Of a stretch of 34,575 bases of DNA, positions 15,879 to 17,118 are shown in pieces. Source of the DNA: Candidatus Limnocylindrus sp. (GTDB lineage: Bacteria; Chloroflexota; Limnocylindria; Limnocylindrales; Limnocylindraceae); assembly GCA_044236365.1 (NCBI GenBank), contig JBIIGQ010000092.1, forward strand, positions 1 to 34,575, in the 5' to 3' direction. The notes below the pieces were generated by a model. The model did no database searches. It was not told the DNA's origin and was given only the letters and a program-made list of their open reading frames with translations. Every line of letters starts with the position of its first letter. Position 1 is the stretch's first letter. Both the position numbers and the translations under genes were made by a program.

Positions 15879-15954
15879 TGGCGGCCCCTCGCTGAGCGGT
15901 CGACTGCAAGGCGTTGCAGTAACTGACTGGGCGGGCAGGCGATACACTGCCCAC

Positions 15955-16047
15955 ATGACCGCAGCTGACCTCATTGCCCAAGCCGCTGGCGAGCCGAGCA
16001 TCTGTCGATGCCCGTCGCTCTCCTTCGAGCCGTCCTGCGCGCGCTGA
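15955..16047 (+). CDS. putative leaderless Cys-containing leader peptide of cysK-cysE (30 aa)
   Basis: TACACT (15943-15948), 6 nt, ATG; MTAADLIAQAAGEPSICRCPSLSFEPSCAR*. Confidence 0.6.
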   Translation: MTAADLIAQAAGEPSICRCPSLSFEPSCAR

Positions 16048-16128
16048 GGCGATCGCAACCAGGGACCAAACGGCAGAGGGGGCGGCGGATGTAGTCCACA
16101 ACCCACCATGTAGCTGGAGGTACCCGAT

Positions 16129-17118
16129 ATGACCGTTCATAACCCAGGAATCTTTTCCGACAACGCCATCACAATTGGCCGCACCCCACTGGTGCGCTTG
16201 AACCGCGTCACCGACGGCGCCGCCGCAACGGTGCTCGCCAAGATTGAGGGGCGCAACCCTGCCTACTCCGTAAAGTGCCGACTCGGCACCGCCATGGTGC
16301 TCGACGCCGAGAAGCGCGGCGTACTGAAGCCAGGCGTTGAGATTGTTGAGCCAACGAGCGGCAACACCGGCATCGCCTTGGCGATGGTTGGCGCGGCGCG
16401 CGGCTACAAGGTCACCCTCACCATGCCCGACACCGTCAGCATTGAGCGACGAAAGTTGATCGTTGCCTACGGCGCAACGCTGGTCTTGACCGAAGGCGCA
16501 AAGGGGATGCCAGGTGCAATCGCCAAGGCCGAAGAGATTGCCGCATCGGATCCTGCGCGCTACGTGCTGTTGCAGCAGTTCAAGAATCCAGCTGGCCCTG
16601 CAATCCACGAATCAACCACCGGCCCAGAGATCTGGGATGACACCGAAGGCAACGTCGACATCTTCGTTGCAGGGAGCGGCACTGGCGGAACTATCACCGG
16701 CGTTGCTCGCTATTTGAAGAAGGGTCGCGGTAAGGCGGTGCAGATCGTTGCCGTTGAGCCGGCCACCAGTCCAGTTATTGCGCAGCGCATGGCGGGTCAG
16801 CCGAATCAGCCTGCACCACACAAGATTCAGGGAATCGGGCCGGGCTTTGTTCCCGACATTCTCGACATCTCACTCATTGACCAGGTTGAGTCCGTGACGA
16901 ACGAAGAGGCGATCGCCATGGCGCGTCGCATTGCGCGCGAAGAGGGGATCCTCGTTGGTATCTCGTGCGGCGCTGCCGCACACGTTGCGCTGAAGTTGGC
17001 GCATCTGCCAGAGAACGCGGGGAAGACGATTGTCGTCGTGCTTCCAGATTCAGGCGAGCGCTACCTGAGCACCGCGCTCTACGAGGGGCTCTTTGATGCA
17101 AGCGGCATCGCCCTGTGA
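16129..17118 (+). CDS. cysK: cysteine synthase A
   Basis: [12 protein letters not shown] lysine, [39 protein letters not shown]. Confidence 0.95.

Follow-up and report, generated by a model that had tools for sequence, protein, structure and literature searches.

A probably leaderless short reading frame before cysK-cysE in Candidatus Limnocylindrus, proposed as a cysteine-responsive leader peptide with paralogs before other sulfur operons

The cysK-cysE locus and its leader reading frame

Candidatus Limnocylindrus (Chloroflexota), an uncultured lineage, is represented here by a 0.88 Mb assembly, 58% complete and with 62% G+C, of which one stretch of 34,575 nucleotides (contig JBIIGQ010000092.1, hereafter the window) was analysed. 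The window encodes a cysteine synthase A (cysK) followed by a cysE-type serine O-acetyltransferase, and the subject of this study is a short open reading frame (ORF) of 30 codons situated immediately before this gene pair. This ORF belongs to a family of short ORFs sharing the peptide motif Gly-Glu-Pro-Ser-Ile-Cys (GEPSIC). The elements of the locus, all on the forward strand, are the following:

15943-15948, forward strand: -10 box TACACT (TANNNT), 6 nucleotides (nt) 5' of the ATG, read from the sequence
15955-16047, forward strand: leader short ORF of 30 codons, predicted to be leaderless and assigned to class 1 of the GEPSIC family
16003-16005, forward strand: invariant Cys17 codon UGU, proposed sensing codon (TGT in 76/76 unique leaders)
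16116-16120, forward strand: Shine-Dalgarno (SD) sequence GGAGG of cysK, read from the sequence; the core GAGG is kept in the main clade and the first G is variable
16129-17118, forward strand: cysK, cysteine synthase A (Pfam PALP; TIGR01139, 449.8 bits for a cut-off of 350.95)
17115-18005, forward strand: cysE-type serine O-acetyltransferase (Pfam Hexapep; NF041874, 161 bits for a cut-off of 150)

The leader ORF starts with the ATG at 15955 and stops with the TGA at 16045-16047. Its Cys codons are codons 17 (TGT, 16003-16005), 19 (TGC, 16009-16011) and 28 (TGC), and 81 nt separate its stop from the ATG of cysK (16129). A sequence-only reading of the window had described this arrangement, namely TACACT, 6 nt, ATG, a 30-residue ORF with Cys at 17, 19 and 28, and 81 nt before cysK, and each of these elements is found where it was placed, with a translation identical to the one given, as are the strings quoted at 16012-16022, 16022-16030, 16078-16088, 16108-16113 and 16113-16120. 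The start of the cysE-type gene overlaps the stop of cysK, and its product scores 165 bits against TIGR01172 (cysE), under the cut-off of that model. No match to the Rfam 15 covariance models was obtained for 15000-17000 on either strand at E values up to 10, a scan of 15700-16300 for intrinsic terminators returned 0 terminator-like sites, the leader being devoid of a U-run, and a sigma-70 scan of the leader region gave no -35-type match.

The conservation of the ORF was examined in 42 genomes of the genus, in which orthologous CysK was defined by at least 85% identity. An orthologue is encoded in 21 genomes, only a paralog at 40-45% identity in 18, and no match was found in three. Of the 21 genomes with orthologous cysK, 20 contain an exact match to the 24-base core of the ORF, and in the last one cysK lies at a contig start, its upstream region being unassembled; the leader ORF thus occurs in 20/20 same-genus genomes that have both orthologous cysK and an assembled upstream region. 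A degenerate pattern at the peptide level, searched in one genome per prokaryote species, gave 19 loci, all in freshwater metagenome-assembled genomes, most of them labelled Chloroflexota, Chloroflexi, Ca. Limnocylindrus or Ca. Aquidulcis, two labelled only 'bacterium' and one labelled Thermoflexus. A scan of metagenomes added 40 further contigs with a class 1 leader. In the sister family, a search for the 24-mer with up to three mismatches gave five matches, all within unrelated coding sequence.

The resulting class 1 collection, from genomes and metagenomes, comprises 79 copies, corresponding to 44 unique leaders, of which 38 belong to the main clade. The start codon is ATG in 77 copies and GTG in two, so that the alignment of related cysK leaders, which the sequence-only reading had called for, shows an RTG start in 79/79. 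The ORF has 30 codons in 74 copies and 29 codons in four, which arise by an in-frame deletion of 3 nt in one lineage, and one copy is cut by a contig end. Start codon and -10 box are kept in every copy, which bears out the claim that a short ORF with Cys codons lies directly before cysK-cysE. The pattern of variation among the 38 unique main-clade leaders changes along the ORF. In codons 2-11, the numbers of variable sites at codon positions 1, 2 and 3 are 4, 3 and 8; indeed, codon 2 (Thr/Ser) is spelled ACC, AGC, AGT or TCC, and Leu is spelled CTC, CTT, CTG or TTG. This third-position bias is the signature of a coding sequence. Variation all but disappears in codons 12-22 (1, 0 and 2 variable sites), and codons 23-30 show 2, 3 and 0 variable sites, the third position never varying, which looks like a constraint on the RNA rather than on the protein. 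In the main clade the untranslated leader 3' of the ORF hardly varies. Within class 1, Cys17 and Cys19 do not vary and Cys28 is not conserved, so that the expected conservation of the Cys codons holds for the first two only. Judged by this conservation, the ORF at 15955-16047 is a real, unannotated gene.

The geometry of the start is that of a leaderless gene. A TANNNT box occupies positions -12 to -7 in 79/79 class 1 copies, exactly 6 nt before the RTG and in the form of five different hexamers, and the six bases that precede the start are too few to hold an SD sequence. In the genome under study, TANNNT was counted before the candidate starts of ORFs of at least 150 codons, and it peaks at -12 (99 cases) and -13 (31 cases) over a background of about 8 per position. 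The arrangement TANNNT-N6-RTG occurs at 201 sites of the 0.88 Mb assembly, 133 of which open ORFs of at least 100 codons. Because of this peak and of the long ORFs opened by these sites, leaderless genes with this geometry can be regarded, from genome sequence, as common in this organism, and the leader ORF itself is very probably leaderless. The promoters of leaderless-type genes in the assembly have no -35 consensus. Metatranscriptome contigs from four runs of four studies begin at 15979, 15986, 15994 and 16041, the first three of them 24-39 nt inside the ORF, and extend into cysK; such contigs cannot fix a start site and may derive from DNA carry-over, which makes them weak evidence. In the same four runs no RNA contig covers 15700-15978, a gap in coverage that proves nothing.

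A further conserved element lies upstream of the -10 box:

15904-15923, forward strand: CTGCAA-N4-TTGCAG inverted repeat, then TAAC, 20-39 nt upstream of the -10 box, conserved in the alignment

A regular expression for this repeat, run over the whole genome, matched only GEPSIC leader loci. Related motifs, TTGCAAG...GCAGTAAG and CTTGCAAC...GCAGCAAG, are present before the paralogous leaders of classes 2 and 3, described below, that precede DUF4395 genes (G000:C9, about 17240-17261, minus strand; L173, about 115-140). This repeat may be a transcription-factor site common to the paralogous leaders.

Downstream of the gene pair, the window contains an ATP-binding cassette (ABC) transporter gene with membrane and ATPase domains (17915-19945), whose longest ORF overlaps the last 91 nt of cysE in a different frame; the real start of the gene probably lies further downstream.

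The GEPSIC family of leaders

A scan for short leaderless ORFs revealed a second ORF of 30 codons on another contig of the same genome, the first 17 residues of which are identical to those of the cysK leader:

G000:C9:17119-17208 (L112:5120-5209), minus strand: second GEPSIC short ORF, 30 codons, between sufS/NifU-like genes and a DUF4395 gene

The DUF4395 gene of this locus is followed by genes for a PfkB kinase, a nucleoside phosphorylase and a nucleoside hydrolase. The pattern G-E-P-S-I-C was then found at 72 places in 40 of the 42 genus genomes, the reversed control pattern giving 0. Five of the 72 places are chance matches in other frames, and the remainder fall into four classes, the downstream genes of the paralogs being identified by Pfam and NCBIfam. 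The class 1 leader precedes cysK-cysE. The class 2 leader (…AGEPSIC[R/Q]RSH…LAR, 30 codons) precedes a gene for a DUF4395 membrane protein, with a cysteine desulfurase gene and a NifU-like scaffold gene upstream. The class 3 leader (…AGEPSICRRPSSPAP…LAR, 30 codons) is found in genomes without cysK, before an operon encoding, in this order, DUF4395, a Rhodanese+ThiF protein, a ThiS-family protein, a cysteine-synthase-like pyridoxal phosphate enzyme (PALP) and a JAB-domain protein (Prok-JAB); by its gene content this operon (DUF4395-moeZ-cysO-cysM-mec-like) has the layout of the CysO/CysM cysteine route. The class 4 leader (16 codons, …EGEPSIC and then the stop) precedes a gene for a tandem-rhodanese sulfurtransferase, followed by SufE; in two examples (L174:173-223; L175:152-202) the Cys codon stands directly before UGA. 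At 18 further loci the first downstream gene is constant per class, being DUF4395 in 12 cases and rhodanese in six. Within the genus, 21 of the 42 genomes have cysK-cysE and 18 have only the CysM-like enzyme, in the DUF4395-moeZ-cysO-cysM-mec-like operon; going by gene content, these are two alternative cysteine routes, and both are preceded by leaders that are related to each other.

Beyond the genus, a scan for the strict motif with leaderless geometry was positive in one sister-family genus only, as GEPCIC before DUF4395. The scan covered 401 genomes at the class level and 401 at the phylum level and also returned one out-of-frame chance match and one match of the control. When the region before DUF4395 was searched less strictly in 15 sister-family genomes, ORFs of 17-30 codons with C-x-C-x-R-R emerged at 10 of the 15 loci; of the others, two have different Cys motifs and three have none. 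Only 4 of these 15 leaders pass the strict -10 filter. None of 28 cysK-like genes of the sister family has a leaderless Cys-containing short ORF within 450 nt upstream, and all 28 show at most 52% identity to the cysK of the window. Since these genes are so distant and have no such ORF, the class 1 leader looks like a DUF4395 leader that was copied to a place before another cysteine operon. Among 1.84 billion representative proteins, a family profile matched a single one, an entry of 33 residues, and the family is therefore, on the basis of this search, essentially unannotated. This sole annotated relative (P0002) is three residues longer, the gene caller having chosen an ATG within the -10 box.

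Across 16 aligned family members the residues G, E, P, I and C are invariant. The Cys that ends the motif is the sole Cys common to all classes, and its codon is TGT in all 76 unique leaders of all classes; among the 2054 Cys codons of the genome, 81% are TGC and 19% TGT. The Gly, Glu, Pro and Ser codons of the motif vary synonymously, Ser being AGC, TCG, TCC or TCA, an indication that selection acts on the peptide. Conservation does not extend beyond the Cys, since the codon that follows it is CGA, CAA, CCT, CGC or a stop. No tRNA-Cys gene was found in the 58% complete assembly. Consecutive Cys codons do not occur: the residues are spaced as C-R-C in class 1 and as CxC in the sister family, and classes 2-4 have one Cys each.

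Leader RNA and the proposed control of cysK-cysE

Three helices can be drawn in the class 1 leader, all on the forward strand:

15988-16023, forward strand: hairpin H1 inside the ORF, stem GCAUC/GAUGC with outer pairs and the UGU codon in the loop
16012-16088, forward strand: long hairpin B:C, joining the 3' half of the ORF to a G-rich leader segment, given by the RNAalifold consensus and enclosing the ORF stop
16062-16125, forward strand: hairpin H3 over the cysK SD, GGGACC with GGU-CCC and CGGC with GCUG, in sub-optimal and truncated main-clade folds

H1 is part of the predicted minimum-energy fold of every class 1 lineage folded, and its pair 39-64 changes from G-C to A-U in the divergent G036 lineage. 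Its equivalents in the paralogs of classes 2 and 3 use other stems (GUCGA/UCGAC, GCCGUC/GACGGC, CCGAG/CUCGG). The base of B:C is the pairing of 16012-16022 with 16078-16088 that had been proposed by eye and that RNAalifold recovers in its consensus. Among the 38 unique leaders of the main clade, B:C is paired in 1025 of 1026 cells, nine of the ten variant cells keeping the pair and a single one breaking it, and compensatory changes are present in one divergent lineage, the G036 type (CGUUUGCC with GGCAGACG). For H3, 734 of 760 cells are paired, the apex is poorly conserved, and the energy is significant against shuffled sequences in some lineages only.

The other half of the structure first proposed did not hold. 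The direct anti-SD pairing of CCUUC-g-AGC (16022-16030) with GCUGGAGG (16113-16120) is disrupted at two positions by uncompensated changes, each present in 5 of 38 leaders, and is absent from both divergent lineages; the ATG-TAG start-stop at 16108-16113 occurs in 17 of 44 unique leaders and is thus not conserved. For the divergent lineages and all paralog classes, folding predicts hairpins of other sequence that close the SD, the G024 type having a perfect 9-bp anti-SD directly after the stop codon, and the SD is predicted to be mostly paired in all classes. In the two class 4 examples cited above, a pairing is predicted between CUCC in codons 6-7 and the SD of the rhodanese gene. In the 16-codon class as a whole, the SD is predicted to be paired in 12 of 13 leaders, exceeding shuffled short ORFs, and a stall footprint loosens it in 11 of 13; class 1 shows no such loosening. 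B:C is mutually exclusive with H1 and H3, and because of this exclusivity the modelled leader has the topology of an attenuator.

In our reading, which we hold to be probable, the ORF at 15955-16047 is a cysteine-responsive, translated and probably leaderless leader peptide that reports charged tRNA-Cys and tunes cysK-cysE. The cysteine-sensing part of this reading is supported because the paralogous short ORFs precede other sulfur and cysteine operons, as a regulon would look. Transcription would start at the A of the ATG, 7 nt past the TANNNT box, and a 70S ribosome would load on the 5' end. When Cys-tRNA is scarce, the ribosome would dwell at the rare UGU codon 17 in the H1 loop and, in class 1, also at UGC 19. 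This stalled ribosome would hold H1 open, so that, with the SD strand yet to be transcribed, the 3' half of the ORF could pair with the G-rich leader segment; held in B:C, this segment would no longer help H3 to close, the ribosome-binding site of cysK would be free and translation of cysK-cysE would rise. When cysteine is plentiful, the ribosome would reach the stop 13 codons further on, H1 and H3 would form and cysK-cysE would be held down. The output is most likely, according to these models, access to the ribosome-binding site. The choice between the two states would be a kinetic one, which would explain the absence of a switch in equilibrium folding. We infer the stalling, the identity of the switching helices and the direction of the response, and our confidence that H1, B:C and H3 are the particular switching helices is well below that in cysteine-responsive control as such.

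Several observations weigh against this reading. Two of the three class 1 Cys codons are conserved and most paralogs have one Cys, fewer than in proven attenuators. The covariation of B:C in the main clade consists only of one-sided wobble (G-U) changes. For its composition, the leader folds with unremarkable energy (z = +0.58, 146 of 200 shuffles folding at least as well), and the duplex energies of B:C and of anti-SD:SD beat those of shuffles only in some lineages, 13% (B:C) and 44% (anti-SD:SD) of shuffles being as good for the leader of the window itself. Equilibrium folding with ribosome footprints at Cys17, Cys19 and the stop codon, a check that had also been called for, was applied to full-length and truncated leaders; the footprints left the accessibility of the SD at about 0.34-0.36 in 43 class 1 leaders, so that the expected opening of the SD was not seen in this class, and folding of seven non-class 1 leaders gave no clear SD opening, with none consistent in class 2. 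The support for the switch picture of H1, B:C and H3 is consequently thin at the level of folding models. Finally, given the conserved upstream repeat, much of the regulation could be the work of a transcription factor.

Taken to its end, this last point gives a different explanation, in which control is mainly transcriptional, exerted by a factor on the repeat 15904-15923, and the short ORF is a generic leaderless ribosome entry that senses no cysteine. The conservation of the repeat upstream of the class 1 -10 box and the related motifs before classes 2 and 3 agree with it. However, class 4 and the sister-family leaders keep a Cys-containing short ORF in the absence of the repeat motif, and neither the invariant rare UGU nor the fixed length of 30 codons would be explained, which makes this account improbable. 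About as improbable is a functional micropeptide with an essential cysteine, for example in sulfur transfer, that would be co-expressed with the sulfur genes and have no cis-regulatory role. Such a function would suit a motif with an invariant Cys that adjoins rhodanese, SufE, CysO-type and cysteine-synthase genes, but the C-terminal halves differ freely among classes and one class stops right after the Cys; in class 1, codons 23-30 vary at positions 1 and 2 and not at 3, which suggests a constraint on the RNA and not on a protein, and the main clade shows almost no variation in the untranslated leader that follows the ORF. A single annotated relative among so many representative proteins also speaks against it.

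A closer relative of the preferred reading is that of an arrest peptide, which we regard as unlikely, though less so than the two preceding ones. Nascent GEPSI, with the exit tunnel and the P site as the place of action, would slow the ribosome at the next UGU or respond to cysteine or a related metabolite; a single codon would then suffice as a sensor, the RNA rearrangement would be unchanged and the peptide sequence would be essential. In its wider form, given the same low probability, GEP[S/C]IC would be a cysteine-sensing arrest module that stalls at one rare UGU or detects, within the tunnel, cysteine or a sulfur metabolite, controls the sulfur regulon and has been copied before new operons, including an acquired cysK-cysE. 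Conservation goes as far as the Cys codon and no further, four otherwise divergent classes retain GEPSIC with synonymous codons, GEP is present in two sister-family genera too, and classes 2-4 have one Cys codon only, all of which would fit. Yet other sister-family genera have GAT, GFR, DRH or similar before CxC instead of GEP, the motif codons are also the 5' strand of H1, so that the constraint may partly act on the RNA, and the paralogs may be merely recent duplicates. Overall, the interpretation of the leader ORF that the sequence-only reading had advanced is partly supported: its core finds support and its details are corrected as described above.

Relation to known leader peptides and significance

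In mycobacteria, polycysteine leaderless short ORFs (Ms5788A; Rv2334A before cysK1-cysE; another before a rhodanese operon) are described as a 'Cys ribulon' (10.1101/834739; PMC4633059), and stalled ribosomes are reported to have been shown to block the duplex that conceals the next gene's ribosome-binding site (10.1101/834739; cited in PMC13236596). The criterion given for the mycobacterial set is at least two consecutive Cys codons, and its loci are described as independently evolved (10.1101/834739). As in the mycobacterial set so described, the leader in Ca. Limnocylindrus is an unannotated short ORF placed as first cistron in operons for cysteine and sulfur metabolism, among them cysK-cysE and rhodanese, with a leaderless geometry (here predicted), several independent loci, a next SD that is predicted to be paired, and no terminator. 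Unlike that set in the published description, the leaders reported here are in Chloroflexota and have no consecutive Cys run, and their loci are clear paralogs with GEPSIC, a fixed length of 30 codons and an invariant rare UGU. The comparison covers the layout and the published description of the loci. That the case would lie outside mycobacteria had been anticipated, and the host is outside Actinobacteria as well. A literature search found no report of such cysteine leaders in Chloroflexota.

Leader peptides such as trpL, hisL, leuL and the like act as classical transcription attenuators, a class also outlined in the mycobacterial study (10.1101/834739). The cysK leader resembles them in having a short ORF with codons for the pathway's final product and in allowing 1:2, 2:3 and 3:4 helices to be drawn (H1, B:C, H3), and differs from them in the absence of an intrinsic terminator and of any leader 5' of the ORF and in its few, non-tandem regulatory codons. 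Because it has no terminator, it is, as read from its sequence, not a classical transcription attenuator. SecM, TnaC and SpeFL are ribosome arrest peptides that gate downstream genes. ErmCL is another one, as presented in the mycobacterial study (10.1101/834739). The GEPSIC leaders are similar to arrest peptides in that their motif is conserved up to the proposed wait codon and in that the waiting ribosome is proposed to remodel the downstream mRNA; unlike in arrest peptides, the arrest is putative here, the motif is not kept order-wide, and the simplest reading needs a shortage of Cys-tRNA and no tunnel ligand.

Ribosome-read cysteine control has been shown experimentally only in mycobacteria, and the same logic is proposed here for another phylum, in a bacterioplankton genus of fresh waters that is abundant and streamlined. 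This Chloroflexota lineage appears to make wide use of leaderless translation, and dozens of unannotated, probably functional short ORFs in it are missed by gene callers. We propose that at least three paralogous leaders in Ca. Limnocylindrus, before cysK-cysE, DUF4395(-moeZ-cysO-cysM-mec) and rhodanese-sufE, constitute a ribosome-read cysteine regulon. This regulon is informative because related leaders stand before three kinds of sulfur operon with one or two Cys codons and a conserved peptide motif, which makes it a natural test case for the minimum number of codons in a ribosomal amino-acid sensor and for whether the nascent chain helps. In this organism, a whole sulfur regulon appears to depend on one or two Cys codons behind a conserved peptide.

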